Assembly: GCA_963845385.1 (NCBI GenBank)
Contig: CAWJRW010000006.1
Location: 1,544,910-1,608,909 of the forward strand
Reading direction: 5' to 3'
Length of the DNA: 64,000 nucleotides
Source: an uncultured Alphaproteobacteria bacterium
GTDB taxonomy: Bacteria > Pseudomonadota > Alphaproteobacteria > CAWJRW01
Below are positions 5,234 through 62,753 of this stretch, one piece after another. The translations under genes were made by a program, and so were the position numbers. The notes under the pieces are model-generated. The model was not told the origin of the DNA and made no database searches. It was given only the letters and a program-made list of their open reading frames with translations. How positions within the stretch are numbered: position 1 is the first letter of the stretch; every line of letters starts with the position of its first letter.

Positions 5234-5544
5234 GGGGCCTCACCATGGCGGTTAACAAAGAGACCGGCAAGGCGGCAGGTCCCTTTCGTTAATGCGGCGA
5301 ACGAACCCGGGACAGAGGGGGACCGAATCACTGACCGGGCTTGATTCGAGTTTTGTTCACGTACAAGATATTGCGCTGTCAACAAAATGGCGCACAAGTC
5401 ATGCAAATTGGCTAGCTCCACGCGTTAAGGCCTCGGGCGAGAGATATCGCCCGTGCGAGCCTCGCGCGCCTTCCCCGGAACAGGCGATCGCGGGGGCCGA
5501 GACGCTCCGTGAGGTGACGCTACGCTGGGGCTTGAGGCGTCTGC

Positions 5545-13354: not shown

Positions 13355-13418
13355 GCGCGGCTGGTCTCGTTCACGCGGCGGCGTTAGGATGACCGCTGCT
13401 CGCAATGAAAGAGGCACA

Positions 13419-14971
13419 ATGAACGGCGCCGAGAGCCTGATCCGGACCCTCGTCGATTGCGGCGTCGAGGTTTGCTTCAGCCAATCCCGGCACCTCCGAG
13501 ATGCATCTGGTCGCGGCGCTCGACCGCGTTCCGGGCGTGCGCGCGATCTTAGGTCTGCACGAAAACGTCGTCTCGGGCGCCGCCGACGGCTATGGCCGCA
13601 TGCGCGACAAGCCCGCGCTCGCGCTCCTGCATTTGGGCATCGGGCTTGCCAACGGTCTCACCGGCTTGCACGGCGCGCGGCGCGCGATGAGCCCCGTCGT
13701 GACGCTGGTGGGCGAGCATCCGCGCGCGCATCTGCCGTATGACGGGCCGAATGTGATGGATATCGCAGCGCTTGCCCGCACCGTCTCGCGCCACGTCAAG
13801 ATCGCCGAGAGCGCGCGCACGCTGGCGCTCGACGGCGCCAAGACCGTGGCCGAAGCGCTCGCGCCGCCGGGCGGCGTGTCGACGCTGATCTGTCCCTCGG
13901 ACGCCGCATGGGATGAGGGTGCGCTGCCCGTGGCGCCCTTGCGTCTGCCCAAAGTGGAAGCCGTGCCCGAAGCGCGCGTGCAAGAAGCGGCCGAGGCGCT
14001 GAAGGATGCGCGCAAGAGCGTCTTGTTCCTGGACGGGCTTTGCCTTGCGCGGGGCGGCGCTTGAAGCCGCGGGCCGCATCGCCGCCGCGACCGGCGCCGT
14101 GCTCATGTGCCCGATGTTTTACGCGCGCATGCGCCGCGGCGCGGGCGCGGTCGCCGTGCAGCGCCTGCCCTATTTTCCCGAGGAGGCGGCCAAAGCGCTT
14201 AACGGCGTCGATTGCCTCGTGCTCGCGGGCGCAAAGCCGCCCGTCAACTTCTTCGCCTATCCCGGACAGGCGAGCACGCCCGTATCGTCCGCGACGCGCA
14301 TCACGCTTCTCGCAGCGCCCGAGGAAGATGCGACGAGCGCGCTTCTTGCGCTCGCCGAGGCGCTGCGCGCGCCGAGAGAGCCAGGGCTTCGCCAGCCCGC
14401 GGCGCGCACGCCCAGCCCGCGCGGAAAACTCGATCCGTCCACGGTCGGCGCAGGCGTCGCCGCCTATCTGCCGGAAGAGGCGATCATCGTCGACGAAGGC
14501 GTGACCTCGGGCTTCGCGGCCCAGCAACTCACCGCGGGCGCCGCGCCCCACGACAGTTTGCAGGTCACCGGCGGCGCGGTGGGCGCAGGATTATCGCTCG
14601 CCGTAGGCTGCGCGGTTGCCTGTCCGTCGCGCAAAGTCGTGTGCCTGCATGGCGATGGCGGCGCGGTGAGCGCCGTGCAGGCGCTGTGGACCATGGCGCG
14701 CGAGAATCTCGACGTCACCACCGTCATCTTCGCCAACCGCTCCTATCTCATTCTCAATTACGAGTTCATGCGGCTCGGCATGGAGAGCGTGAGCGGCAAG
14801 GCGCCGCAACTCTTCGATCTCGCGCGGCCCGCCCTCGACTGGGTCAAGATCGCGCAAGGCTTGGGCGTCGAAGCCTCGCGCGTCGAGAGCGCGGAAAATT
14901 TTTCGGACCAATTCGGCGCGGCGATGCGCGCGGGCGGGCGCGGCCCGCGCCTCATCGAAGTGCCGCTGTAG
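13419..14971 (+). pseudogene. Thiamine-diphosphate enzyme (acetolactate-synthase-like), two frame breaks near 13478 and 14035
   Basis: MNGAESLIRTLVDCGVEVCFS | NPGTSEMHLVAALD... (extra C at about 13478) | ...ALRGAALEAAGRIAAATGA...HGDGGAVSAVQALWTMARENLDV (ThDP-binding GDG motif). Spans ORFs 13389, 13501 and 14006. Confidence 0.75.
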
Positions 14972-15821: not shown

Positions 15822-16661
15822 GTGAGTGGCATCAGAAACCTCATTGTCGTTGGCATTGTTGGCGTCTTCTTGCTCATGCTTGTTTCCGGAAGTTGGTACA
15901 CGGTCGATGCCGGCGAGAAGGCCGTCGTGCTCACCTTCGGCTCCATCAGCGCCGTCAAGGGCGCCGGCTTGCACTTCAAGGTGCCGCTCGCGCAAACCGT
16001 CCACACGGTGAGCACACGCGTGCAATGGCTGAGCTGGGATGCGAACGAGCCGATGGAGACCTATTCCAAGGATCAGCAGCCGGCGAAGCTGCAAGTCAAC
16101 GTCGCCTATCGCGTGCTGGCCGACGACGCGTCCTTGCGCGCCTTCTACACGACCTATCGCGAAATCGAGAGCCTGACGGCCGCGCTCATCGCGCCGCGCG
16201 CGCTCGAAGCCATCAAAACCACCTTTGGGCGTTTCAATGCGGTGACGGCCATTCAGGATCGCACGAAGCTCAACGCCGAAGTCGAGAACGCGGTGCGCCG
16301 TCTCGTTGTCGGTCCCGTCTATGTCGAGGGCGTTCAGATCAAGGACATCACCTTCTCGGAGGAATACGAAAAGTCGGTCGAGCAGCGCATGCTGGCGCAG
16401 GTCGAAGTCGAGAGGTTCCGCCAGAACAAGGAGCGCGAGCAGCTTCAGGCCGACATCAAGGTGATCCAAGCAACCGCCGAGGCGCAATCGCTGACGCTCA
16501 GGGGCCAGGCCGAGGCTTCCGCCATTCGCGCCCGCGGCGAGGCGCTGCGCGACAACCCGAAGCTCGTCGAGCTCGTGGCCGCCGAGAAATGGAACGGTGT
16601 CCTGCCCACCACCATGCTGCCGGGCTCGGCCGTGCCCTTCATCGAGGTGCCGAACCAGTGA
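15822..16661 (+). CDS. SPFH/prohibitin (band 7) family membrane protein
   Basis: ORF 15822..16661(+). N-terminal TM (LIVVGIVGVFLLMLV), then YTVDAGEKAVVLTFG and a coiled Gln/Ala/Glu-rich C-part typical of prohibitin homologues. Confidence 0.85.
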   Translation: MSGIRNLIVVGIVGVFLLMLVSGSWYTVDAGEKAVVLTFGSISAVKGAGLHFKVPLAQTVHTVSTRVQWLSWDANEPMETYSKDQQPAKLQVNVAYRVLADDASLRAFYTTYREIESLTAALIAPRALEAIKTTFGRFNAVTAIQDRTKLNAEVENAVRRLVVGPVYVEGVQIKDITFSEEYEKSVEQRMLAQVEVERFRQNKEREQLQADIKVIQATAEAQSLTLRGQAEASAIRARGEALRDNPKLVELVAAEKWNGVLPTTMLPGSAVPFIEVPNQ

Positions 16662-16854
16662 GGCAGAGCCCGCCGTCGGGAGCGCACGGGACGGCGGGGC
16701 TCTACCTCTAACCAATTGTATTGAGACGGTTATCTGCGGCTGCCGGGGGTTTCCCGGCAGCCGCCGCCCGTATTTACCAGCCGTCAGGGCTAATCATTTG
16801 TAAACGCGCCGGCTCCACAATCGCAGCGTTAGAGAAACTGCCAATGGCAAATCA

Positions 16855-18218
16855 ATGGTTGCAGACGCCAATTCGCCAACCGATCGCCAACAGCAGACGG
16901 TGCTCGTGCTCGGTCCCGACATACCGCGCGCGCCGTCGTCCGAGGGCGTGGCTTTCTCCACCGATCCGCGGACGGCGTGCGACGCCATCGTCATTTCGGA
17001 GCCGATCGACGAGGCGACCTGGCGCGCGCTCGCCGAAGGCCGGCACGCGCTCGTGCCGATCGTCGACTTCGGCGTCAACAAAGGACTGTCCGCGGATTTC
17101 AGCGCCGAGGCGCTGACACGGGAGAACGTGCAGGCCGCGCTCGGCGAGTGCCAGCGCATCTGGCGCCGCCTCGCGAACTTGCCCCTCGCCGAGCTCAAGA
17201 CGAGCCCCGACACGATCGAGCTTTCGGTGCTCGCGCTCGCCTATTCGCGCGACAAGCCCATCGAGGCCAAGCGCACGAGCGAAGCCCGCGCCACGGTCTA
17301 TTACCCGCTGCTCCTCAAGCGCTTCGGGCTCGGCGCCGCCGATCTGCGCGCCACCCTCGCGTTTCTCGCCAACCTGAACCTCTTGAACCCGAGATTTTTC
17401 GCGCGCGCGCATCTCTGCAAAGCCTGCGGCTCGTCCAGGCTTTGCGCCTTCGAAGCTTGCGTCAAATGCGGCAGCGGCGCGCTCAACCAGGAAGTCCTGA
17501 TCCATCACTATCGCTGCGGCTACCAGACGCGCGAAAGCGAGTTCGTCGTCCAGCGCGATCTCGTCTGCCCGAAATGCCGCCGCGTGCTGAAACATTTCGG
17601 CGTCGATTACGACAAGCCGGGCGTGGCGATTCGCTGCGAGAGCTGCGCCGCAAACATGCACGAGCCCCAAGCCCGTCTTTCAGTGCCTCGATTGCGCGCA
17701 AACGACGAATGCCGACGCCGCGGAGACGATCGACTGGTTCTCCTACGATTTGACCGACCAGGGCAGCGCCGCGGTGCTCGAAGGCCATCTGCCCAATCTC
17801 GATCTCGCGCGCATCATGAAGCGCGAACCGCGCGCCTATGCGGGCACCGACTTTGCGCTGCTCATGGGCGAGCAGCTCCGGGTCGCCAAGCGCTACAAGC
17901 GCCCGATCTCCGTTGCCTTGATCCAAATCTCCAACGAAGACGAAGTGCGAACAGAGCTCGGCGTCGCGGGCGCGAGTGCGGCTTATCGCTTCGTTGCGGA
18001 TCTGATGGCGGAGAACTTGCGCGAGACCGATTTTTTCACCATCACCCAGGGCAAGGCCATTCTCGTGGCCTTTCCGGAGACCGATCCCGAGCGCACCGCG
18101 CTGGCGCTCGCGCGGGTCAAGTCGAAAATCAGCCAATCCATCGCGGCGCCCGTGGAACTCAGCTGCGGACGTGCGCTCCGCCGAGGACGCGGCGCAGCTC
18201 ATCGAGGCGCAGAGGTGA
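16855..18218 (+). pseudogene. Multi-CxxC zinc-ribbon (TackOD1-like) protein with C-terminal degenerate GGDEF domain retaining an RxxD I-site; two frame breaks near 17665 and 18172
   Basis: CKACGS...CVKCGS...HHYRCGY...CPKCRRVLKHFGVDYDKP...CESC...(extra C in gagCCCCaag)...FQCLDC. Then RYKRPISVALIQISNEDEV...NLRETDFFTITQGKAILVAFPETD, which aligns to PleD-type ...RAIDLPCRYGGEEFVVIMPDT. The stop TGA at 18216-18218 overlaps the GTG of the next gene. Confidence 0.65.
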
Positions 18219-19534
18219 CGGGCGCCGACCCGGTCGCCACGGGGCTCGAGGCCGTGGGCCTCTTGAGACAGCTCGATCTCGAAAGTCTCGTGCGCCTCTT
18301 CTGGTACACGTTGCTTTTCGACTTGCCGCGCTATGCGGTGGGAAGCCTGATCATTCTCACCACCCCGCTTGCGCGCCGGCTCCTGCCTGCGGCGCGACGC
18401 GAGCCCCGAACCGATTTCCGGGAAGCCCCTCAGCTTCAGCGTCGTAATCGGCGGGCACAACGAAGCAGAGGCTCTGCGCAGGTGCATCGCCTCCATACGC
18501 GAGCAGACCATCATGGACGCCGCGCGCGGCGAGATCATCGTCATCGACGACGGCTCGAGCGACGAGATGGCGCGCGTCATGGCCGATCTGCGCCGGCGCG
18601 GGGCCATCGACGTCGCGCTGTCCTTGGGGCTCCGCGGCGGCAAGAGCGCCGCCGTCAATCTGGGTCTCAGGCACTGCAAGAACGACATCGTGATCATCGC
18701 CGATGTCGACACGAGCTTCGATCGCGACGCTTTCGAGCGCCTGCTCGAGCCCTTCGAGAATCCGGAGATCGGCGCGGTGTGCGGCAATCTGACGTCTGCG
18801 CAATCCCTTCGTGAGCATGGTGACGCGCTTCCAGGCGATCGAATATCTCATCTCGATTTCCCTTGGCCGGCGCGTGAGCGACGTCTTGGGCGTGCTCTCC
18901 ATCGTCTCGGGCGCGTTCGGCGCCTTCCGGCGCGAGGCTTTGCACGCGGTCGGCGGCTACGACGTCGAGGTGGGCGAGGATGCCGATCTCACCTTGAAGC
19001 TCATTTGGGCGGGATGGCGCATCGCTTTCGCCCATGAGGCGCGCGCGAGCACCGACGCGCCCGAGACCTTCTCGGCCTTGGTGCACCAGCGTCTGCGCTG
19101 GGACCGGGGCGTCATCACGATTTGGGGACGCAAATACCGCCGCGCGCTCGATCCGCACTACGCCAACTTCACGCTCGGGATGACGCTCATCCTGGCGGAC
19201 GTCTTTCTCTTCGAGGCGCTGCTCAGCGTCGCGATGATCGTCTACCTGTTCTGGCTGTTTCTCACCTTCGGCAGCTTCGGCTGGGTGCTTCTCGTCGCCA
19301 CCATGAGCATCTATTTCGGCCTCAGCGCTGCGATGCTCGTCGCGGCCGCAATTCTCGAGCGCGACGCGGACGCGCTCGCGCTTCTTGCCCTATGTGCCCT
19401 TCTATTCGCTCATGAACTTCGCCGTTATGCGCCTGGTTCGCCTCATCGCGTTCGTGGACGAGCTCGTGTTCCGGCGCTCCTACCGCGATCCCTATGTGCC
19501 ACGCCGCGTCATGGATCAGGTTGAGTGGTTCTGA
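18215..19534 (+). pseudogene. Processive family-2 glycosyltransferase (polysaccharide synthase with QxxRW motif); three frame breaks near 18395, 18800 and 19390
   Basis: N-terminal TM LFWYTLLFDLPRYAVGSLIIL. FSVVIGGHNE, IIVIDDGSSD, IIADVDT, VSGAFGAFRREAL, GEDADLT and QRLRWDRG form the D,D,D,Q(R/Q)xRW set of processive GT2 synthases. C-terminal TMs follow. Pieces lie in ORFs 17750, 18369 and 18811 plus a third frame ending ...RVMDQVEWF. Confidence 0.75.
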
Positions 19535-20535
19535 TGAAGAAGCTGCAGTCGCGCGCGCGGCCCGACAGGCTGACGAACGAGCTTCGTCCGCGCCGGACCG
19601 CGCTGTCGCGCTGGCTCTATCTCGGCGTGCTCGGCGTGCTTGCGCTGTGGGTGGGCGATCTTCTGTTCGGCGGCTTTTTCTTCCTGCGCTCCGACGGGAT
19701 CGTGCTCGCGCCCTCCGTGACGGTATCCGCCGAGTTCGTGGGCACGGTGCGAAGCTTGAGCGTGCACGAGGGCGACGCCGTCGAGCAGGGCAAGCTCGTG
19801 GGCACGGTGAGCTCCCACGGCGTGGTCGAAGGCATCGCGCGCAATACCGTCGAGGTGGTCAATCTGCGCTCCAAAATCTTCGACCTCAAAACCCGCGCGG
19901 AGATCATCGATGCCGTTCTCTATCTCGCCACCGAACGCAGCAAGTCCGCATCCGACGCGCAAAAGACGATCAGGTCGCTCGCCGACCAGAAGATCCTTCC
20001 TCTCGATTTCCGGACGGCCGCGGTCGACGCGCAATATCGAAGCCGTTACGACATGGCATCCCTCGAGGTGGAGCGCGACGCGACGGCGGCCGAGCTTTCG
20101 TTTCTCGATCCCGCCGTCAAGCAGGCCGAGGCCGCGGTCGCCGATCTCAGAAGGCTCTACGCCAACGGCAATGTCCTGGCGCCCATCAGCGGCATTGTCG
20201 GCCGTCTTCATGCGGTGCCGGGCTCGGTGTTTCAGCCGGGCCAGCCGCTCATGGAGATCTACAGCGACGCGCGCTATGTGCTCGCCTATCTGCCGAGCGG
20301 GGCGCTCTACCAGGTCGCGGTGGACGATCCGGTGACGATCCGCTGGGGCCTGCGCGCGCTGCGGGGAAAAGTCATCCGCATCGAGCCCATCGCCGCGAGC
20401 CTGCCGTCCGAGTTCCAGCAGGCCTTCAAGCCCGTCGATCGCGCGCAAGTCATCCGCGTCGCTTTCGATGCCGGCGCGAGCCCGCCGCCTTTGTTCACGA
20501 AAGTGAGGCTGCGCGCGGGCATATCTTTCTGGTAG
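19534..20535 (+). CDS. HlyD-family (membrane-fusion-protein-like) protein
   Basis: ORF 19525..20535(+). The ATG at 19534 shares its A with the GT2 stop (tgATGa). One N-terminal TM (WLYLGVLGVLALWVGDLLF). Lipoyl-like hairpins VSAEFVGTVRSLSVHEGDAV and APISGIVGRLHAVPGSVFQPGQPL flank a coiled region. Confidence 0.7.
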   Translation: MKKLQSRARPDRLTNELRPRRTALSRWLYLGVLGVLALWVGDLLFGGFFFLRSDGIVLAPSVTVSAEFVGTVRSLSVHEGDAVEQGKLVGTVSSHGVVEGIARNTVEVVNLRSKIFDLKTRAEIIDAVLYLATERSKSASDAQKTIRSLADQKILPLDFRTAAVDAQYRSRYDMASLEVERDATAAELSFLDPAVKQAEAAVADLRRLYANGNVLAPISGIVGRLHAVPGSVFQPGQPLMEIYSDARYVLAYLPSGALYQVAVDDPVTIRWGLRALRGKVIRIEPIAASLPSEFQQAFKPVDRAQVIRVAFDAGASPPPLFTKVRLRAGISFW

Positions 20536-20540
20536 CCGCC

Positions 20541-22122
20541 TCAGTCGACGACGACTTCGACCAGCGTCGGTCCGGCCGCGCTGAAAGCCGTCTTGAGCGC
20601 GCCGTCGAGCGCTTCGGGCTTATCGACGAAGCTTGCCGACAGCCCTTGTCCGCGCGCGAGCGCGCAGAAATCGATGCCCGAGAGATCGGTTCCCACCGAG
20701 CGCTGCAGCCCGAAGCGGTGGCCGAACTGGACGAGTGCCTCGTAGCGCTTGTTGTTGACGATGATGAAGGTGATGGGAAGCCCGAGCTGGGCCGCGGTCC
20801 AAAGTCCTTGGATCGCATACATGCTCGAGCCGTCGCCGAGCACGGCGATCACTTTTTCCTTCGGACGCGCCAGCGCGACGCCGATCGCCGCGGGCAAGCC
20901 ATGGCCGAGCCCGCCGCTCGCGCAGGTGTAGAAGGTGTCGCGCTTGAGGATCGGCAGATAATCGTGCATCGGCCCGCGGCTGCTCGGCGCTTCCTCGACG
21001 ATGATGCTGTCCTTGGGCCGTAACGCCGCGATCTGCTGCATGAGATAGCCGTCGGTGAACGGCGTTCCGCGAAAGACGGGGCGCGCGGCGGCGTGACGGA
21101 AAGCGTCGCGCGCTTGCGAGGCTGCGGCCCTTCGAGCAGATCCGCGATCCCCGCTTTCAGGCTCGTCACCACGGCGCTGCCGACGGGCGCCCAGGCCGCC
21201 ATCGCCGGATCGTCGATGAGCTGGAAGAGCGTTGCACCTTCGGGAACGAAGGGGCCGAAGCCTTCGACGTGATAGGTGAAGGCGGGCGCGCCGAGCACGA
21301 GGATGAGATCGTGGCCCTTGAGGCTTTCCACGATGGGCTCGCGCGCCGCGACGAGAAAGCCCGCGAACAGGCGATGATCTTCGGGGAAGCTGTTGCGCGC
21401 CGACATCGGGCTCGCCCACACCGGCGCCTCGTGGCGCTCGGCGAGCGCGATCACCTCGTCCCAGGCGTCGTCCCGCGCCAGCGCGGCGCCGACGACGAAC
21501 GCGGGCTTTTCCGCCTTGGCGAGCGCATCGGCGACCGCGGCGAGCATTCCGGCATCGCCGCGCAGCGTGCGGCTCACCTGGCGCGCTTCGACGGGCTCGC
21601 AGGCACGATCCCAATCGTCGATCGGGATCGACACGAAGCAGGGCCCGCGCGGCGGCTGCATCGCCGTGTAATAGGCGCGCGCGATGGCGGCCGGCACATC
21701 TTCGGCGCGGGCGGGCTCGTTGCTCCACTTGACGTAGGGCTTCGGAAACTCGGGCGCGTTCTGGGCGAAGAGAAAGGGCTCGAGCGGCAGGATCGAGCGC
21801 GCTTGCTGGCCCGCGGTGACGACGAGCGGCGTCTGGTTTCTGTAGGCGGTGAAGAGATTGCCCGCGCGCATGGCCGACGCCCACCGCCGAGTGCAGATTG
21901 ACGAAGGCTGCGTTGCGATTGGCCTGCGCGAAGCCGTCGGCCATGCCGAGCACGATCGATTCCTGCAGGCCCAGCACGTAGCGGAAGTCTTGCGGGAAAA
22001 TCGCGGAACATCGGCAACTCGGTCGAGCCGGGATTGCCGAAGATCGTGGTCATGCGGAAGGCGCGGAGCAGATCGAGCACCGCGTCCCGCACCGTCGTCT
22101 GCGCAGCTCTTTTCCCCGTCAT
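20541..22122 (-). pseudogene. Thiamine-diphosphate enzyme, benzoylformate-decarboxylase-like; at least three frame breaks (about 21100, 21870, 21985)
   Basis: MTGKRAAQTTVRDAVLDLLRAFRMTTIFGNPGSTELPMF | LGLQESIVLGMADGFAQA... | GNLFTAYRNQTPLVVTAGQQ... | ...LGDGSSMYAIQGLWTAAQLGLPITFIIVNN. Pieces lie in ORFs 21574, 20541 and 20849. Confidence 0.75.
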
Positions 22123-22223: not shown

Positions 22224-22299
22224 TGGTAGCGGGAGAGGGATTCGAACCCCCGACCAAAGGATTATGATTCCTCTGCTCTACCGGCTGAGCTATCCCGCC
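22224..22299 (-). tRNA. tRNA with CAT anticodon (tRNA-Met elongator type; Ile-lysidine type not excluded)
   Basis: Minus-strand 76 nt: GGCGGGATAGCTCAGCCGGTAGAGCAGAGGAATCATAATCCTTTGGTCGGGGGTTCGAATCCCTCTCCCGCTACCA. Folds by hand into a cloverleaf: 7-bp acceptor stem, GCTC/GAGC D stem, anticodon loop ATCATAA, TTCGAAT T-loop, encoded CCA. Confidence 0.9.
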
Positions 22300-32599: not shown

Positions 32600-34311
32600 T
32601 TGGTGAACGGGCTTACGAATTTCGTGAGAACGCCTCGGCGTGGCGCGCATTGCGGCGCTCGCCGGGATATGCGCGGCCCTCATCGGCTTTTTCGCCTTCG
32701 TCATTCTGCGGCTGTCCGAGCCGCCCATGGCGCCGCTCTTCGGCCCGCTCGCGGTCGAGGACGCGGGCGCCATCGTCTCGCGGCTGGAAGCCATGGGCGT
32801 GCCCTACGAGCTCAAGGGCGATGGCGGGCTCATCCTCGTGCCCGAGGACCGCGTGCTGCGCCTGCGCATGGCGATGGCCGAAGAGGGACTGCCCTCGAGC
32901 CGCGGCGCCGGCTACGAGCTCTTCGACAAGCAGGACGCTTTCGGCGCCACGAGCTTCATGCAGAACTTCAACCGCCTGCGCGCGCTCGAGGGCGAGCTTG
33001 CGCGCACCATCAGCGCGATCGAGACCGTGGCCTCGGCGCGCGTGCATCTCGTGATCCCCAAGCGCGAGCTCTTCGCCAGCGACGCGACGGAGCCTACGGC
33101 CTCCATCGTCATTCACGCCAAAGGCGCCGGCCTGAGCCGCGAGCAGGTCAAGGCGATCCAGAATCTCGTCGCCGCCGCCGTCGAAGGCTTGAAGCCGCAG
33201 CGCGTCGCCATCGTCGACACGCAAGGCGAGCTGCTCGTCGAGCAGCGACAGCGGCGATCCGCAAGCGGACATGGCGCCGGCACCTACGACGAACGGACTG
33301 CGGCTCATGAAGCGCGCATGCGCACCGAGATCGAGGACATCGTCTCCCATGTCGTCGGCCCCGGCAAAGCGCGCGTGCAAATCGCCGCCGACATCGACTT
33401 CAATCGCGTGACGCAGAACTTCGAGACCTACGATCCCGACGGCCAGGTCGTTCGCTCGACGCAGACGGTCGAAGAGAATTCGAGCAACAACCAAGGCCAG
33501 TCGAGCGAAGCCACCTCGGTCGCACAAAATCTTCCCGATCAAGCAGCAGCCCGCAGAGCGACACGCGGCCACCAACACCTCCGTCGGAGGCCTCGAACCG
33601 CACGGAAGAGACGGTCAATTACGAGATCTCCAAGACCACCAAGACCGAGATCACGGAGGCCGGCCGGATCAAGCGGCTGTCGGTCGCCGTGCTGGTCGAC
33701 GGCAACTACACGAACGACGCCAACGGCGGCGACGCCTATACGCCGCGCGCGCAAGACGAGCTCGACAAGATCGCGGCGCTCGTGCGCTCGGCCATCGGCT
33801 TCGACGAGAAGCGCGGCGATCAGGTGAGCGTCGTCAATCTCCGCTTCGCCGAGCCCAAGATGCCGGAGCTGACGGAGGAGAAGGAGCCCCTGCTCGGGCT
33901 GCGCAAGATCCGACTACATGCGCATCGGCGAGACGGTGGGCCTTCTCTTGGTGGCGCTGCTTGACCATGCTCTTCGTCGTGCGGCCGACGCTCGCCCGCC
34001 TTCTCAATCCCATGGCAGCCCGCGCTCGGCGGCCTGCCGGCGCAGGCACCGCAGCTTGCAGGTCACCAGGCGCCGCAGCTTGCTTCGCCCGCGGCCGCAG
34101 GCGGCGCGCAGCGCACCGCCTGCTCTTGCCCATGGCGGGGCGCCGCTGGCCCTTCCCGCCGGCGCAGCCCGGCATGGGCTCGATGATCGACATCGCGCAG
34201 ATCGAAGGCCAAGTGAAGGAAAGCTCGGTCCGCAAGGTCGGCGAAATCGTGGGCAAGCATCCCGACGAGGCCATGGCGATCGTGCGCACCTGGCTCCACC
34301 AGGGGAACTGA
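32600..34311 (+). pseudogene. fliF: Flagellar M-ring protein FliF; at least four frame breaks (about 32632, 33540, 33912, 33960), possibly more in 34010-34170
   Basis: VNGLTNFVRT | LGVARIAALAGICAALIGFFAF...ASARVHLVIPKRELF...[26 protein letters not shown]... | ...[35 protein letters not shown]... | [18 protein letters not shown] | [14 protein letters not shown]...[37 protein letters not shown]. Confidence 0.9.
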
Positions 34312-34318
34312 GCGAGCC

Positions 34319-35339
34319 GTGGCGCGCGAACGATCCCCGCCAGCTCTCGCGGCCCCGAAAAGGCCGCGGTGCTGCTGCTCGCCTGGGCGAGGAGCACGGC
34401 CAGCGTCTGTGGTCCATGATGGACGAGGACGAGATCAAGGAGCTGTCCCAGATCATGTCCAATCTCGGCACGGTCAGCTCGACGCTCGTCGAACGCTTGC
34501 TGGTCGAGTTCGTCTCGCAGATGTCCTCCACCGGCTCGCTCGATGGGCTCCTACGAGTTCGACCGAGCGCCTGCTCACGCGCTTCCTGCCCAACGACCGC
34601 GTCGGCCAGGTCATGGAGGAAATCCGCGGTCCCGCCGGCCGCACCATGTGGGACAAGCTCGGCAACGTGAACGAGAGCGTGCTCGCGAACTATCTCAAGA
34701 ACGAATATCCGCAGACCGTCGCGGTCGTGCTGTCCAAGATCAAGCCCGAGCACGCCGCGCGCGTGCTGGGCGCGCTGCCCGAGGAATTCGCGCTCGAAGT
34801 CGTGCAGCGCATGCTGCGCATGGAGACGGTGCAGAAGGACATTCTCGACAAGGTCGAGCACGACCCTGCGCACCGAGTTCATGTCCAACCTCGCGCGCAC
34901 CGCCAAGCGCGACGCCACGAGATGATGGCCGAGATCTTCAACAATTTCGACCGCCAGACCGAAGGCCGCTTCATCACCGCGCTCGAGGAGCGCAACCGCG
35001 ACTCCGCCGAGCGCATCAAGGCGCTGATGTTCACCTTCGAGGATCTCGCGCAAGCTCGATCCCGGCAGCGTCCAGACGCTGCTGCGCGCCGTCGAGAAGG
35101 ACAAGCTCGGCGCTCGCGCTCAAGGGCGCCTCCGACACGCTGCGCGACCTCTTCTTCTCCAACATGTCCGAGCGCGCCGGCAAGATCCTGCGCGAGGACA
35201 TGGAGGCGATGGGCCCGGTGCGCCTGAAGGACGTCGACGAGGCGCAGATGAGCATGGTGAACATCGCCAAGGACCTCGCCGCCAAGGGCGAGATCATGAT
35301 CGCCGCAAGCCAAGGGCGAAGACGAGCTCGATCTACTGA
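34319..35339 (+). pseudogene. fliG: Flagellar motor switch protein FliG; about eleven frame breaks in 1 kb
   Basis: [10 protein letters not shown] | [33 protein letters not shown]...STGSL | MGSYE | [37 protein letters not shown]...[20 protein letters not shown]... | [17 protein letters not shown] | [20 protein letters not shown]...MFTFEDLA | [19 protein letters not shown] | [46 protein letters not shown]... | KGEDEL | IY stop at 35337-35339. Confidence 0.9.
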
Positions 35340-35354
35340 GCGCGAACAGAACCC

Positions 35355-35979
35355 ATGTCACCCGCACAACGCTTCACATTCGACCGCGAATTCGGCCACG
35401 ACGGCACGCGCGCCAAGAAGAGCGTGCGCGCTCAAGCGCACGCTGTCGCAGCCGACGAGCTCGAGGCGATCAAGGCGGACGCGTTCGCGCGAGGGCGCCA
35501 AGGCCGCCGAGGCCGAAGCCGCCAAGCGATCGGCCGCGCAGCTCGTCGAGCGTCAACGCGCGAGCTCGGCGCGCTCGTCGAGCGCGCTGGACGACGCCAT
35601 GCGACCGGCCCGCGCGGAGGCGATCAAGCTCGCGCTATCTCATCGCGCGCAAGCTCGCCGCAGCACGCTGGTCGAGGCGCGCTCGCAGACCGAGATCGAG
35701 GCCTTGATCGGCGCAATGCCTCGAGGAGCAGCGCAGCGAGCCGCGACATCGTCATTCGCGTCCACGCCGGGCTCGCTCGACGCCGTCAAGGCCGAAGCCG
35801 CGAAACTTGTCGCAAGGAGCAGAGCTTTACGGGCCGCGTTCTCGTCATCGGCGAGCCGCAGATCGCGGCCGGCAACTGCACGCATCGAATGGGCCGATGG
35901 CGGCCTCGAGCGCGATCTCGACACGCAGATCTACGCCGTGGACGAGATCATACGGACTTATCTGCATGCCGAAGAATGA
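35355..35979 (+). pseudogene. fliH: FliH/FlbE-like flagellar assembly protein; several frame breaks
   Basis: Sits between fliG and fliN, as Caulobacter flbE does. [17 protein letters not shown]..., [63 protein letters not shown] and [28 protein letters not shown] are scattered over two frames. The stop overlaps the fliN ATG (ATGA at 35976-35979). Confidence 0.6.
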
Positions 35980-36448
35980 ACGATGCCGATGTCTCGGATC
36001 GGCCGTCGCCGCCCGAGGAAGCACTTGGCACCACCACGCCCGTTGACGGAGGGAAGTAGACGATGTCGAGCGGCGAAGGAATGGAGCTTCAGGAGCTCAC
36101 CCAGGAGCAACCGCCAAGAACCGGCCGCCGACAAGACCGGCGCGATTGCGGACCAAGCCGAAGCCGAAGAGGCCGCGCACAGCGCGTCCGACCTCGAGGC
36201 CGTCTTCGACGTGCCGGTCAACGTCTCGGCGGTCCTGGGCAAGGCGCAGATGGAAGTGAGCCAGCTCTTGAAGCTCGGCCGCGGCGCCGTGCGTCGAGCT
36301 CGACCGCAAGGTCGGCGAGGCGATCGACATCTACGTCAACAACCGCCTGGTCGCGCGCGGCGAGGTGGTCCTGGTCGAGGACCGGCTCGGCGTCACCATG
36401 ACGGAAATCATCAAAGGCGGTCGCAGCCTGAAAGAGCCTGACAGATAG
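35976..36448 (+). pseudogene. fliN: Flagellar motor switch protein FliN; at least two frame breaks
   Basis: C-terminal SpoA-type domain LEAVFDVPVNVSAVLGKAQMEVSQLLKLGRGAV | VELDRKVGEAIDIYVNNRLVARGEVVLVEDRLGVTMTEII, ending at TAG 36446-36448. The N-terminal region is low complexity with an in-frame TAG at about 36057, which implies further indels. Confidence 0.8.
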
Positions 36449-36451
36449 ATC

Positions 36452-37862
<1,411 letters not shown>

Positions 37863-37870
37863 ACATCCCA

Positions 37871-37970
37871 CCCTCCCCTCGAGGGAAAGCTCCTCGAGGA
37901 GGGAATCCGGTCGACGCTTCGACCTCCCCTCGAGGCGAGTCGAATCGGCGCACGAGCCTTCGCGAGGGGA
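37871..37970. repeat. Two imperfect hairpins built on a CCCCTCGAGG core between flbD and flhA
   Basis: CCCTCCCCTCGAGGG-aaagct-CCTCGAGGAGGG, then CTCCCCTCGAGGC...GCCTTCGCGAGGGGA. The core CCTCGAGG occurs three times within 60 bp. Possibly a terminator or a second REP type. Confidence 0.45.
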
Positions 37971-38020
37971 CTGCGCACGCGACGCCGGCATTGCGCGATC
38001 TGCAGATGTGCGAGCGAGCG

Positions 38021-40130
38021 ATGCCGACACTCGCGGCTCAGACGGCGAGCTGCGTTCGGCGTCTTGCGCATCTCAAGCGCGGCGATATCTGCGCTCGGCG
38101 CTCGGCATTCTGGCGATCATCGTCGTGCTGCATCCTGCCGCTGCCGCCGATGCTGCTCGACTTGCTGCTGGCGATCTCGATCACCTTCTCGGTGCTGATC
38201 CTGATGACGGCGCTGTTCATCGAGCGCCCGCTCGAATTCAGCGCCTTCCCGACCGTGCTGCTGATCGCGACGATGCTGCGCCTGTCGCTCAACCTCGCCT
38301 CGACCCGCCTGATCCTCGCCCACGGCCACGAGGGCACCGCCGCCGCCGGCCACGTCATCGAGGCCTTCGGCAACTTCGTGATGCAGGGCAATTTCGTCAT
38401 CGGCGTCATCGTCTTCGCGATCCTGGTGATCGTGAACTTCGTCGTCATCACCAAGGGCTCGGGCCGCATCGCCGAAGTCGCCGCGCGCTTCACCTTGGAC
38501 GCCATGCCCGGCAAGCAGATGGCGATCGACGCCGATCTCTCCGCCGGCCTCATCGACGAGAACGAGGCGCGCGAGCGCCGCAAGCAGCTCGAGGACGAAG
38601 CGAACTTCTTCGGCGCCATGGACGGCGCCTCGAAGTTCGTGCGCGGCGACGCCATCGCCGGCCTGCTCATCATCTTCATCAACATCATCGGCGGCATGAT
38701 CATCGGCGTCGGCGCAGCAAGGCCTGACCTTCGCCGACGCCGGCAACACCTACACGCTGCTCACCGTCGGCGACGGCCTGGTCACGCAGATCCCCGCGCT
38801 GCATCGTCTCGATCGCCGCCGGCCTGCTGGTGTCGAAGGCCGGCGTCGAAGGCGCCGCCGACAAGGCGCTGGTCGGCCAGCTCTCCGGCTATCCCGCAGG
38901 CGCTCGGCATGTCGTCGCTCGTGATGGCCGTGATGGCGTTCCTGCCCGGCATGCCGACGCTGCTCTTCCTGCTCCTCTCGCGGCGCCATGGGCGGCGCTC
39001 GCCTGAGCGTGTGGCGCACGCGGCGAAGCGGCGCGCCGCCGAAGCGCTGCGCGCGCAGAGCGCCAAGAAGCGAAGCCGCCCGCGCGACGAGCCGATCGCC
39101 GACCGCGCTGGCGATGGACTATCTTGCGCGTCGAACTCGGCTACGGCCTGCTGCCGCTGATCAACGACAATGCAAGGGCCACCGCCTCACCGACCAGATC
39201 AAGGCGCTGCGCCGCCAGCTCGCCAGCGAGATGGGCTTCGTCATGCCGTCGGTGCGCATCATCGACAACATGCAGCTCGGCTCGAACAGACTACGTCATC
39301 CGCGTCAAGGAGATGGAGGCCGGCAGGGCGAGCTGCGCTCCGGCCAGCTGCTGGTCATGGATCCGCGCGGCGACGCCGATCGATCTGCCCGGGCGAAGCG
39401 ATGCGCGAGCCCGCCTTCGGCCTGCCCGCCACCTGGGTCGACGACGGCCTGCGCGAGGAAGCCTCGTTCCGCGGCTACACGGTCGTCGATCCCGCGACCG
39501 TGCTCACCACGCATCTCACCGAGATTCTCAAGGACAACATGGCCGAGCTTCTCTCCTACGCGGAGACGAAGAAGCTGCTCGACGATCTGCCGGCCGAGCA
39601 GAAGAAGCTCGTCGACGACCTCGTGCCCGTCGCAGATCACGGTCACCGGCATCCAGCGCATCCTGCAGGCGCTGCTTGGCGGAGCGCATCTCGATCCGCG
39701 ATCTGCCGACGATCCTCGAAGGCATCGCCGAGGCGGTGTCGCACACGAGCAATGCCACGCGCATCACCGAGCACGTGCGCGCGCGGCTGGCGCGCCAGAT
39801 CTGCAACAACAATCTCGACGCCGCCGGCGAGCTGCCGCTCGTCACGCTTGTCGCCGCGACTGGGAGCACGCCTTCGCCGAAGCGCTGGTCGGCCAGGGCG
39901 AGGACCGGCAGCTCGCCATGGCGCCGTCGCAGCTGCAGGAGTTCATCACCGCGGTGCGCGCGCGCTTCGACGCAGACCGCTGCAGGGCGAGCTCGCCGTG
40001 CTGCTCACCAGCCCCATGATCCGGCCCTTACGTGCGCTCGATCATCGAGCGCTTCCGCCCGCAGACCGTCGTCATGTCGCAGAACGAGATCCACCCGCAG
40101 GTGAAGCTCAAGACCCTCGGCCAGGTGTGA
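38021..40130 (+). pseudogene. flhA: Flagellar export apparatus protein FlhA; many frame breaks
   Basis: [44 protein letters not shown]...[49 protein letters not shown]...[19 protein letters not shown]... These are the FHIPEP motifs. Cytoplasmic-domain pieces ([91 protein letters not shown]) are spread over all frames. Stop at 40128-40130. Confidence 0.9.
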
Positions 40131-40140
40131 GGGCGGGGCC

Positions 40141-41340
40141 ATGCGTCTGCGCACATTCATGCGGCGACCATGAAGGAGGCGATGGCCCGCGTGCGCGCCG
40201 AGATGGGCCCGGACGCCGTCATTATCTATTCCCATGAGCGCAAGCGGGGGCGCGGCGTCGAAGTGCGCGCGGCCGCCGAAGGCTGCGCCGCCGCCGCCGC
40301 CGCCACCGCCCGCGCAGGCAGCTTTGCCCACGGTAAAGCGCGCGCGCGTCCAAGGAACGGAGTCGTCGCTCGCAGGCGCGGCGCGGCGCAGAGAGGCGCT
40401 GGCGAGCGCTGCGGGTGCTTCGGCCGCAACGGATGCGCGCAAGCAGGCGCGCAAGCCCGCCGGCATGAACGGCAACGGCGCGCATGCCCACAGCATTGCC
40501 GTTCTCCGATCCGCGGACACATCCGAAGTCTTGAAGCGCGCGCTCGCCTATCACGGGCTTGGCGGAAAGCTTGCCGCGGCATTGAGCGAGCTCGCGGGCA
40601 AGATGGACGAGCGGACCCGGCTCTCTCGCTCGGAAAGGCGCTCGACGCGCGGTTCGGCTTCCGGCCGCTGCCGGTTCTGCCGCCCGTGCCCATCATGCTC
40701 GTGGGCGGCCCGGGCGTGGGCAAGACCGTGACCACGGCCAAGCTCGCCGCGCGCGCGCGGCTTGCGGGCCACGCCGTGCGCGTCGTCACCACGGACACAC
40801 TGCGTTCGGGCGCGATCGAGCAGCTCGCAAAGCTCCTGGACAGCATGGGTCTCGCGCCCGACACCGCCGACCACGCCCGGAGCCTTGTCCGCGTGGCTCG
40901 CCGCGCAGCGCGAAACGAACGCGCCGACGGCGATTTTCATCGATACGCCGGGCACCAACGTGCTCGCCATCGGCGAACGCGACGATCTCGCGCGTTTCAT
41001 CAAAGCGGGCGAGATCGAGCCCGTGCTCGTGCAAGCCGCCGGCGCCGATTGCGCGGAAGCGGCCGCCAACGCCAAGCTCTTCGCGGCGCTCGGTGCGCGC
41101 CGCATGATCATGACGCGCCTCGACGCGGCGCGGCGGTTGGGCAGCCTTCTCGCCGCCGCGGACGCTTCGCATCTCGGCATCGCCGAGGTGAGCCTTTCGC
41201 CTTATCTCTCCGAACCGCTCAATGCACTCAAGCCCGTCGCGCTGGCGCGCATCCTGCTCGCCCAGAGCGGCGGCTGCGGCGACGCCTTCGCCACACGCCA
41301 GAACCAGCCGAGAACAATCAAGGAGCAGCGCCTGCAATGA
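40141..41340 (+). pseudogene. flhF: Flagellar biosynthesis GTPase FlhF (SRP-type); about four frame breaks
   Basis: MRLRTFM | (A)ATMKEAMARVRAEMGPDAVIIYS...; G1 LVGGPGVGKTVTTAKLAA; FIDTPGTN; MIMTRLDAARRLGSLL. The first junction needs one extra G (atg gcg). Confidence 0.85.
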
Positions 41341-42197
41341 CAATCGCGAGCACCCCGAAATCGCCGGGCCGGCCGGTCAGCATGGCGGGCAACACGCCCA
41401 TCACGGGCCCGCGCCGCTTGACCGTGGCCTCCGGCAAGGGCGGCGTCGGCAAGACGTGGTTTGCCGTGACGCTCGCCCAAGCGCTCGCCATGGAAGGCGA
41501 AGCAGTGCTTCTGGTCGACGCCGATCTCGGGCTCGCCAATGTCGACGTGCAGCTCGGCCTCACGCCGCACGCCGATCTCGCGGCGGTCGTGGCGCGCGAG
41601 ATCAAGATCGAGGCGGCCGTCTCGGCCTATGGCGGCGGACGGAACGCGGCGACGCGCGGCGGCTTCGACGTGCTTCCCGGACGCTCGGGCGCCGGCACGC
41701 TTGCCGGGCTTGCCCAAGGCGAGCTTGCGTCGCTGGCCGCGGGTCTCGTGGCGCTCGAGCGCGCCTATGACCGCATCGTCGTCGATCTCGGTGCCGGCCT
41801 CGATCTCGGCCGTCACGACCTTCGCCGGCCACGACGCGGGCGACGGCCCCGGTCATGCGGTGCTCGTGGTGCTCACCGACGAGCCGACATCGCTCACCGA
41901 CGCCTACGCCTTCATCAAGGTCATGCGCTTGCGCGCGCCCGTCGGCGGATCTGCGCGTCGTGGTCAATCGCGCCTCGAGCTACAGCCAAGGCAAGCGCAC
42001 CTATCAGGCGCTGGAAACGGCGTGCCGGAATTTCCTCGGCTTTTCGCCGCCGCTCGCGGGCATCGTGCCCGAGGACACCCGCGTGCGCCGAATCGATCCG
42101 CCACCAGAGCGCGCTGCTCGGCCGCTATCCCCAGAGCAAGGCTGGCGCCGGAATCATCGCCATTGCCCATGCCTTGCACGCGGGCCGGGCGCTTTAG
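41337..42197 (+). pseudogene. flhG: MinD/ParA-type ATPase FlhG (FleN/MotR-like); three frame breaks
   Basis: The ATG overlaps the flhF stop (ATGA). Deviant Walker A VASGKGGVGKTWFAVTLAQALA, LLVDADLGLANVDV, then VVLTDEPTSLTDAYAFIKVM | [12 protein letters not shown]... | ESIRHQSALLGRYPQSKAG in successive frames. Confidence 0.8.
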
Positions 42198-62732: not shown

Positions 62733-62753
62733 AGCGCGCTCGCGCGCTTCGGC

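Follow-up and report, generated by a model that had tools for sequence, protein, structure and literature searches.

We investigated a three-gene locus at positions 16855-20535 of a 64,000-nucleotide (nt) stretch of DNA, hereafter the window, from an uncultured alphaproteobacterium (GenBank assembly GCA_963845385.1, contig CAWJRW010000006.1). The three genes are co-directional, lie on the forward strand (+), as do all features of the locus described below, and are linked by overlapping stop and start codons. Gene 1 (16855..18218) encodes a predicted soluble regulatory subunit of 453 amino acids (aa) after frame correction, identified using Pfam, an intact relative (P0001), tblastn with an indel map and an AlphaFold (AF2) model. 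Gene 2 (18215..19534) encodes a membrane-embedded, processive-type family 2 glycosyltransferase (GT2) of 438-439 aa, also frame-corrected, identified using Pfam, NCBIfam, PDB and AF2/Foldseek comparisons. Gene 3 (19534..20535) encodes a membrane-fusion, or periplasmic adaptor, protein of 333 aa in an unbroken frame, identified using Pfam, hydropathy and a PDB profile. At the first junction, GTGA (18215..18218), the GTG at 18215-18217 overlaps the TGA at 18216-18218. At the second, TGATG (19532..19536), the TGA at 19532-19534 shares one base with the ATG at 19534-19536. This ATG (19534, MKKLQ...) is the start of gene 3 and matches the intact relative; the start at GTG 19525 in the list of open reading frames (ORFs) is wrong. 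The 4-nt overlap of genes 1 and 2 also occurs at 5499-5502 of the syntenic metagenomic relative L001, and the TGATG junction is identical in L001, L004, L087 and L088. A preliminary description had read the locus, from its letters alone, as a multi-CxxC zinc-ribbon protein ending in a degenerate GGDEF domain, a GT2 with N- and C-terminal transmembrane segments and the full D,D,D,QRLRW set, and a single-transmembrane HlyD-like protein with lipoyl-type hairpins, joined by overlapping stop/start codons and carrying five single-nt frame breaks in genes 1 and 2. All of these elements were borne out by the searches and models presented here.

The frame-corrected product of gene 1 shares 87% identity with P0001, an intact protein of 453 aa. 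No hydrophobic segment was detected by hydropathy, which points to a soluble protein. Its alignment-based AF2 model (predicted local distance difference test score, pLDDT, 85.9) comprised an alpha/beta region (~14-132), a beta-rich zinc-ribbon region (~177-299) and a second alpha/beta region (~330-451). The N-terminal alpha/beta domain (residues ~14-132, 16894..17250), delimited from AF2 secondary structure, had no Pfam match, and two of its residues, P68 and D81, were nearly invariant among homologues. A receiver (REC) identity for this domain was not supported, as a profile-profile comparison with the receivers of longer family members returned a probability of 3.5%.

The central part of gene 1 (residues ~117-299, 17203..17752) is a TackOD1 domain (PF18551, E 7.7e-37, 127.1 bits versus a cut-off of 32). 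It contains five CxxC pairs plus an HxxC motif and is predicted to bind several zinc ions. Ten of these cysteines (C188, C191, C202, C205, C221, C238, C241, C261, C264 and C277) together with H218 were invariant in 83/83 homologues, and C280 was kept in 81/83. The domain match is to Pfam; in NCBIfam, where the preliminary description had proposed to look for a TackOD1 model, there was none that matched gene 1. TackOD1 is defined by 11 conserved cysteines in five CxxC motifs plus HxxC, and was introduced as a response-regulator output domain whose function was called obscure (Galperin et al. 2018, PMC5847659). In archaeal response regulators it follows receiver or winged helix-turn-helix (wHTH) domains, and its cysteine pattern recalls the zinc-binding insert of PriA (PMC5847659).

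The C-terminal domain of gene 1 (residues ~330-451, 17843..18209) has a GGDEF fold, identified through a PDB family profile and Foldseek. When the profile of the gene-1 family was compared with PDB, it retrieved GGDEF crystal structures, with 3ign at E 4e-12. All of the 50 Foldseek matches listed for the domain were GGDEF-domain proteins, nearly all of them diguanylate cyclases, with target template-modelling scores (TM-scores) of 0.55-0.62 for isolated GGDEF domains. The catalytic signature is gone: TQGKA stands where GG[DE]EF is expected, GG[DE]EF occurs in 0/83 homologues, and the domain's first half has likewise had its DxD...N/D residues replaced, as read from the alignment. Gene 1 as an active diguanylate cyclase was therefore rejected, since the signature and the metal- and GTP-binding residues are both replaced.

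The inhibitory site of the GGDEF fold appears to have been retained. An RETD sequence (R389-D392, 18020..18031), read from the sequence as an RxxD motif, is found five residues ahead of where GGDEF used to be, in alignment with the RqsD of 3ign, a GGDEF structure with bound cyclic diguanylate (c-di-GMP). A partner arginine, R420, sits 31 residues beyond R389, a spacing that matches that of R359 and R390 in PleD. RxxD was found in 60/83 homologues, 58 of which also carry R or K at position 420, so that all three positions are kept in 58/83. R389, D392 and R420 were lost jointly in a Bacteroidales clade and in a Roseibium/Breoghania/Mesorhizobium clade. Joint retention and joint loss is the pattern expected of a working ligand site and not of a remnant, and on these sequence grounds gene 1 probably binds c-di-GMP at the retained inhibitory site.

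Gene 2 matched Glycos_transf_2 (E 1.5e-24) and Glyco_trans_2_3 (E 1.6e-15) in Pfam, both above the cut-offs, and its product is 93% identical to P0042 and 84% identical to the intact P0043. The frame-corrected sequence carries IDDG at residue 110, DVD at 163, GEDAD at 253 and QRLRW at 291, all invariant in 26 homologues. The last of these (19087..19101), with Q291, R292, R294 and W295 invariant in the same set, is the QxxRW acceptor-binding motif of processive GT2s. By sequence, the nearest solved relatives were Xenopus hyaluronan synthase HAS1, the Pyrobaculum mannosyltransferase PcManGT, chitin synthases, Chlorella virus hyaluronan synthase and BcsA. P0043, the intact relative, was modelled with AF2 (pLDDT 84; predicted template-modelling score, pTM, 0.82), and in this model the catalytic domain is flanked by transmembrane helices, at residues 30-56 on its N-terminal side and at 320-418 on its C-terminal side. 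The gene 2 protein (438 aa) ends ~20 residues past its last helix and has no extra C-terminal domain. The P0043 model aligned with hyaluronan synthases over its full length, membrane helices included (Foldseek TM-score 0.71-0.73; 428 aligned columns and 0.73 for the Chlorella virus enzyme), followed by PcManGT, BcsA and chitin synthases, whereas the lipid-directed ArnC and GtrB scored just 0.34-0.38. Given these full-length matches and the much lower scores of lipid-directed GT2s, gene 2 groups, on its modelled fold, with the channel-forming processive membrane polymer synthases.

None of the three genes had an NCBIfam equivalog. For gene 2, the PgaC/IcaA model (TIGR03937) was the top named model for the C-terminal half and for both halves combined, with 60.5 and 73.4 bits on the two halves versus a cut-off of 422.3. 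For the N-terminal half, MftF, a non-polymer glycosyltransferase, scored marginally above PgaC/IcaA, and the cellulose-synthase model matched only around QxxRW. Orthology with PgaC was rejected, as these scores are below cut-off and the neighbours of gene 2 are a TackOD1 protein and a membrane-fusion protein. The gene 2 enzyme resembles PgaC/IcaA, the poly-beta-1,6-GlcNAc synthase, in size and catalytic motifs, but it has no PgaA, PgaB or PgaD partners at the locus.

Gene 3 matched HlyD_3 (E 4e-12, 47.2 bits versus a cut-off of 22.2, residues 217-292) and HlyD_D23 (E 4e-10, 39.6 bits versus 30) in Pfam, with a weak Biotin_lipoyl hairpin match at residues 65-93. Its product has a short Arg-rich cytoplasmic tail (~30 residues) followed by a single hydrophobic segment (~32-50), and an identical protein is already on the public record (P0162). 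It thus has the lipoyl and beta-barrel parts expected of a periplasmic adaptor. The gene-3 family profile retrieved EmrA from PDB (E 6e-13), then MacA, MexJ and HlyD. Adaptors of the EmrA, MacA and HlyD families work with, and dock to, TolC-type channels.

Genes 1 and 2 are interrupted in the deposited sequence. We mapped the breaks by translating the genes of L001, which shares ~85% DNA identity with the window over 12 kb, and placing them back onto the window. This identified five net +1 insertions, at ~17664 and 18164 in gene 1 and at ~18389-18418 (net), 18792 and 19387 in gene 2. Neighbouring genes were broken likewise, namely those encoding two thiamine-diphosphate (TPP) enzymes (two breaks in the first, three in the second), mnmA (one) and a DUF4349 protein (one), giving 12 breaks per ~10.5 kb of syntenic coding sequence, of which 11/12 were 1-nt insertions. 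A hidden Markov model of codon-position G+C content (GC) recovered these breaks and counted 68 same-strand frame switches in the whole window, some of which are genuine overlapping gene junctions. The switches were densest in a flagellar/chemotaxis cluster at 24.7-53 kb, where many flagellar genes are frame-broken and the ORF at 36452-39160 fuses a sigma-54 activator with FlhA; the densest stretches were at 34000-42000 and 61200-62750. The break rate was ~1.4 per kb in the locus versus ~1 per kb window-wide, and codon-position GC periodicity was retained on either side of each break.

Insertion errors of 1 nt are typical of unpolished long reads. Because the same insertion type occurs throughout the window, including in mnmA and the flagellar genes, the five breaks are assembly or sequencing errors and not decay of the locus. 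A mis-framed 530-aa gene-1 ORF is already on the public record (P0002), which places the errors in the deposited assembly. With single-base frame errors this pervasive, any ORF-based reading of the window needs frame correction.

To place the locus in a wider context, we compared it with close and distant relatives. In L001 all three genes are intact (453, 438 and 333 aa), are 84-88% identical to those of the window and have the same junctions and flanks. The trio is present in the syntenic close relatives L001-L003 and, with unrelated flanks, in L004-L006 and L087-L089; a relative at 38% identity also has the same trio within unrelated flanks. Three GT2 homologues chosen independently of gene 1 were all (3/3) found in the same trio, again with unrelated flanks. 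A genome scan, taking one genome per species, identified at least 586 genomes with a gene-1 relative, and 80 loci were fetched. The GT2 gene immediately followed the gene-1 homologue in 79/80, with junctions mostly of -4 to ~+10 nt (-4, -1 and ~+10 nt being common). The hosts span at least eight phylum-level lineages: Alpha-, Gamma- and Zetaproteobacteria, Bacteroidales, Calditrichaeota, KSB1, Caldisericaceae and Desulfurobacteriaceae. Among 1.84 billion representative proteins, 1198 clusters (50% identity) of the gene-1 family were retrieved by profile at E <= 1e-30. For the GT2, more than 1000 clusters were found at E <= 0.001, the 120 best being ~50% identical to the window protein. The trio is thus a conserved neighbourhood in both close and distant relatives, and no extra conserved partner recurs in the alphaproteobacterial flanks.

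A four-gene version of the operon was found outside the Alphaproteobacteria, except in a minority of gammaproteobacterial loci. Here gene 1 sits mid-operon and the adaptor gene lies elsewhere in the operon, directly preceded in 36/37 four-gene loci by a gene for a ~700-aa protein. The adaptor family of this version and gene 3 are homologous from end to end (hhalign probability 99.9%, E 5e-35). The ~700-aa protein matched CmeC of the TolC family in its N-terminal part (E 2e-4) and a glycosidase-like chain in its C-terminal part (PDB 10yv, E 1.3e-9), where an H-L-D-x-E-P motif is invariant; Pfam gave one weak OEP match, below cut-off, in L082. Members of this secreted-protein family include L039:2675-4690 and L082:1978-4512, with those of 35 other loci (alignment A3). 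In Rheinheimera loci (L039:8448-9200, L043, L047, L068 and L079), a gene for a ~250-aa protein with a domain of thrombospondin C-terminal (calcium-binding) type directly follows the GT2 gene, and in Aliiglaciecola L074 and Alteromonas L078 its homologue lies ~3 kb upstream on the opposite strand.

Some operons also carry nucleotide-sugar genes. In two metagenome-assembled genomes (MAGs) of Rhodomicrobiaceae, gene 1 and the GT2 gene are separated by a gene of the UDP-glucose/GDP-mannose dehydrogenase family and by epimerase genes, and a dehydrogenase gene of the same family lies just upstream of a Caldisericaceae locus. Insertions in or beside the operon, namely a gene of this family plus one or two NAD-dependent epimerase/dehydratase genes, were seen at L015:7356-10821 and L011:5222-7613, also at L075:3653-4903, with epimerases in L086 and L089. 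No nucleotide-sugar gene was found near the window locus. Dehydrogenase and epimerase genes in or beside the operon hint that, at least in some lineages, the polymer may contain a uronic acid.

We compared the trio with described systems in which c-di-GMP controls a polysaccharide synthase. In Bacillus subtilis, the ydaJKLMN operon encodes a separate dead-GGDEF protein with an intact inhibitory site, YdaK, within a putative polysaccharide synthase operon, as gene 1 is encoded beside gene 2 (PMC7064775). YdaK is a degenerate-GGDEF receptor whose inhibitory-site arginine is essential for the yda polysaccharide machinery, and it is required for the activity of the putative synthase components YdaM and YdaN (PMC7064775). 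Compared by description, YdaK differs from gene 1 in being anchored by four transmembrane helices and in having neither a zinc ribbon nor an N-terminal alpha/beta domain. Its partner is YdaN and not a membrane-fusion protein, and the Gram-positive host has no outer-membrane step. PelD of Pseudomonas aeruginosa, a protein with GAF and degenerate GGDEF domains, gates polysaccharide synthesis post-translationally by binding c-di-GMP at its RxxD site and activating PelF. The literature lists PelD among the degenerate-GGDEF c-di-GMP receptors, a type that also includes YdaK and PopA. Gene 1 resembles PelD in its predicted RxxD inhibitory site on the dead GGDEF domain of a dedicated subunit. Unlike the trio, however, the Pel system has a membrane-bound sensor with a GAF domain, a soluble GT4 enzyme (PelF) and export through PelB and PelC.

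The envelope layout has other counterparts. In Sinorhizobium meliloti, the synthase BgsA, the adaptor BgsB and TolC are all needed for mixed-linkage glucan; BgsBA is activated by c-di-GMP and TolC is encoded elsewhere (PMC13438883). The trio shares with BgsB-BgsA-TolC a GT2 gene that adjoins an HlyD-type gene, here gene 3, and a proposed tripartite envelope layout. BgsA, however, has seven transmembrane domains and its own C-terminal c-di-GMP-binding domain (PMC13438883), whereas gene 2 lacks a sensor domain at its C terminus, the putative sensor is encoded separately and the gene order is reversed. Membership of the BgsA type was rejected on the lack of that domain, and the likeness to BgsBA is an analogy. 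The resemblance to bgsBA drawn in the preliminary description thus holds for the adjacent HlyD-type partner and fails for a synthase with its own c-di-GMP domain. Its further statement that the putative nucleotide sensor is separate from the synthase agrees with our data, as gene 2 ends after the last helices and the GGDEF-fold domain is on gene 1.

Alg8-Alg44 likewise pairs a GT2 polymerase with a single-transmembrane, adaptor-like co-polymerase, and alginate polymerisation needs c-di-GMP (PMC4436075). Unlike in the trio, the receptor is part of the adaptor-like protein itself, as the PilZ domain of Alg44, and alginate is exported through AlgK/AlgE and not TolC. Gene 3, which has ~30 residues before its transmembrane segment and no PilZ match, was rejected as a member of the Alg44 type. 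In cyanobacteria, an XcsA/XcsB/TolC cellulose synthase model has been proposed, in a review that itself notes the missing experimental validation (PMC12430437). Here too the GT2 gene adjoins an HlyD-like gene and a TolC exit is proposed; unlike gene 2, XcsA belongs to the BcsA type of cellulose synthases and carries a fused PilZ domain, and there is no TackOD1/GGDEF subunit. By analogy, the best reading of the trio is that it combines the regulatory logic of PelD and YdaK with the envelope layout of BgsBA-TolC.

Taken together, we consider the locus, with a probability of roughly 0.6, to be a functional three-gene operon encoding a synthase-dependent exopolysaccharide machine gated by a separate degenerate-GGDEF c-di-GMP receptor. 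We infer that the machine might operate as follows. The gene 2 protein, a processive GT2 in the inner membrane, would polymerise a nucleotide sugar and thread the chain through its own transmembrane channel. The gene 3 protein, an EmrA/HlyD-type protein anchored by one helix, would span the periplasm as a conduit leading to an outer-membrane channel of the TolC family. That channel would be encoded elsewhere in the genome of the window and, in other phyla, beside the operon as the TolC-like/glycosidase-like fusion. Gene 1 would provide a soluble regulatory subunit, produced in fixed proportion to the synthase, whose dead GGDEF domain would bind c-di-GMP at R389, D392 and R420. The TackOD1 zinc-ribbon module may then relay the c-di-GMP signal to the cytosolic face of the synthase, switching polymerisation on.

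Several observations weigh against parts of this proposal. On the window protein alone, the GGDEF Pfam match (E 1.7e-4, 21.9 bits) was under the cut-off of 23.8. The GT2 pairing persists in the 23/83 homologues without RxxD, which rules out c-di-GMP as an input common to them all. In longer members of the gene-1 family, one or two canonical receiver domains precede the same core, and TackOD1 could bind DNA instead of the synthase (PMC5847659). On the export side, the window ORFs that were scanned did not include a TolC-like gene, and no hydrolase, deacetylase or precursor gene was found at the locus. Finally, a 781-aa ORF of a Rhodospirillales MAG (L027:7218-9563) contains both GT2 and HlyD domains; as a natural synthase-adaptor fusion it would speak for the proposal, but it could also be an assembly error.

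The first three of these points bear on the input to gene 1. The machine could be the same without gene 1 being a c-di-GMP receptor, the GGDEF-like domain being a structural remnant or a dimerisation module and the input coming from phosphorylation-type signalling through the N-terminal domain, from a partner protein or from metal or redox sensing by TackOD1. The homologues that lack RxxD yet keep the pairing, the sub-threshold Pfam score, the receiver domains of longer members and the definition of TackOD1 as a response-regulator output domain (PMC5847659) all speak for this alternative. The receiver domains imply that the regulator of some lineages is a genuine response regulator of the two-component type. 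In the window protein, by contrast, no receiver domain was recognisable, the RxxD lies exactly five residues before the former GGDEF and aligns with that of the c-di-GMP-bound structure, and R389, D392 and R420 are kept or lost together. We therefore regard a gene 1 that is not a c-di-GMP receptor as unlikely, though to be taken seriously. The receiver-bearing members are P0266, P0258, P0268, P0273, P0286, P0294, P0302 and P0303.

A more doubtful alternative is that gene 1 encodes a transcription factor, whose TackOD1 zinc ribbons bind DNA and control expression of the operon with or without c-di-GMP. This is consistent with the placement of TackOD1 in archaeal response regulators, where it comes after receiver or wHTH domains, with its PriA-insert-like cysteine pattern (PMC5847659) and with the position of gene 1 at the head of the operon in the window. 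Against it, Pfam revealed neither an HTH nor any other known DNA-binding domain, the coupling of gene 1 to the GT2 gene is strict and spans phyla, with the close junctions reported above, and gene 1 lies within the operon in the four-gene version. This strict coupling and mid-operon position fit a stoichiometric subunit better than a regulator of transcription.

The nature of the product was also considered, as the GT2 might make a short oligosaccharide or a glycolipid, in NodC-like or lipid-directed fashion, exported with the adaptor as for DevB-type proteins. The enzyme is small (438 aa, about the size of NodC), NodC and the DevB family are among the weaker NCBIfam matches, and a hydrolase or outer-membrane gene is absent at the locus. 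The best structural matches, however, are full-length channel-forming synthases, with lipid-directed GT2s scoring much lower. In the four-gene version there is also the TolC-like/glycosidase-like fusion, as is typical of systems that export and trim a polymer, and nucleotide-sugar dehydrogenase and epimerase genes lie within the operon at the two Rhodomicrobiaceae loci. We judge an oligosaccharide or glycolipid product to be very improbable. Least credible of all is a dead locus in which five frameshifts have made pseudogenes of genes 1 and 2: although the breaks stand in the deposited assembly and the mis-framed P0002 is publicly recorded, this reading was rejected by the indel map against the syntenic relative and by the codon-position GC model, as the same 1-nt insertions break the TPP enzyme, mnmA, DUF4349, flagellar and chemotaxis genes, the locus rate (~1.4 per kb) compares with a window-wide ~1 per kb, GC periodicity is unbroken around each break and, apart from the breaks, the proteins share 84-93% identity with intact relatives and retain every motif.

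The surroundings of the trio were also described. A GC-rich hairpin (16660..16708, +) lies directly 3' of the stop codon of an upstream Band_7 gene (RNA fold -32.4 kcal/mol, z -3.1), with no T-run after it. It is probably a terminator separating the Band_7 gene from the trio, in which case the trio should have its own promoter somewhere in 16709-16854. A scan for sigma-70 consensus sequences upstream of the trio found none, and a promoter was not located. The GC of the locus is 64-65%, like that of the whole window, and a horizontal-transfer island was rejected. The two TPP enzyme genes, at 13389-14971 (+) and 20544-22122 (-), are paralogous (~30-35% identical to each other) and flank the NUDIX, Band_7 and trio genes, an arrangement conserved in L001. 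A tRNA-Met (CAT) at 22224-22299 (-), between the second TPP enzyme gene and mnmA, was the sole RNA gene detected in the window.

The flagellar/chemotaxis cluster (~24700-53000) starts ~4 kb downstream of the trio. It contains genes for a flagellin (by synteny with L001), FliK, a rod protein, FliF, FliG, a sigma-54 activator, FlhA, an FlhF-like SRP54 GTPase, a MinD/ParA-type ATPase, a FliI-type ATPase, CheR and a CheA-CheW-REC hybrid. Its adjacency to the polysaccharide locus is not kept in distant relatives.

The preliminary description did not recognise the three-part combination as a described system, and the literature searched likewise contained none. Nothing was found for a degenerate GGDEF combined with a glycosyltransferase, HlyD and a zinc ribbon, and TackOD1/PF18551 appeared only in Galperin et al. 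2018 (PMC5847659); many subscription-journal papers lie outside the coverage of this literature, so the absence of a prior description is not proven. A separate degenerate-GGDEF receptor beside a synthase is an established principle (YdaK, PMC7064775; PelD) and is not new. What is new is the receptor architecture and the three-part combination, not the principle of gating. More broadly, though at somewhat less than even odds, we propose that TackOD1 with a degenerate GGDEF domain constitutes a new and widespread class of c-di-GMP receptor, which in some lineages would be controlled by phosphorylation instead. It would gate an unrecognised exopolysaccharide family built from a hyaluronan synthase/PgaC-like GT2, an EmrA-type adaptor and a TolC exit, possibly with a uronic-acid polymer as product.

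Only a handful of synthase-dependent exopolysaccharide systems have been worked out (cellulose, poly-N-acetylglucosamine, alginate, Pel and mixed-linkage glucan), and each uses a different way of gating its membrane synthase by c-di-GMP. The trio described here is compact, portable and very widespread, occurring in at least 586 species-level genomes, among them marine and soil Alpha- and Gammaproteobacteria, Bacteroidales and deep-branching phyla. Several of the hosts are cultured, which makes the system directly testable. They include Pseudomaricurvus alcaniphilus MEBiC06469, Rheinheimera sp. 4Y26, Roseibium litorale 4C16A, Breoghania corrubedonensis DSM 23382, Mesorhizobium helmanticense CSLC115N, Aliiglaciecola lipolytica E3 and Prolixibacter bellariivorans ATCC BAA-1284; RxxD is missing in the Breoghania, Mesorhizobium and Prolixibacter strains and present in Aliiglaciecola. 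If our interpretation is correct, it would add a new receptor architecture, in which a zinc-ribbon module is coupled to a dead GGDEF domain, and would give the TackOD1 domain its first functional context. It would also extend the emerging theme of polymer export by GT2, adaptor and TolC, and would point to a new, possibly useful polymer.

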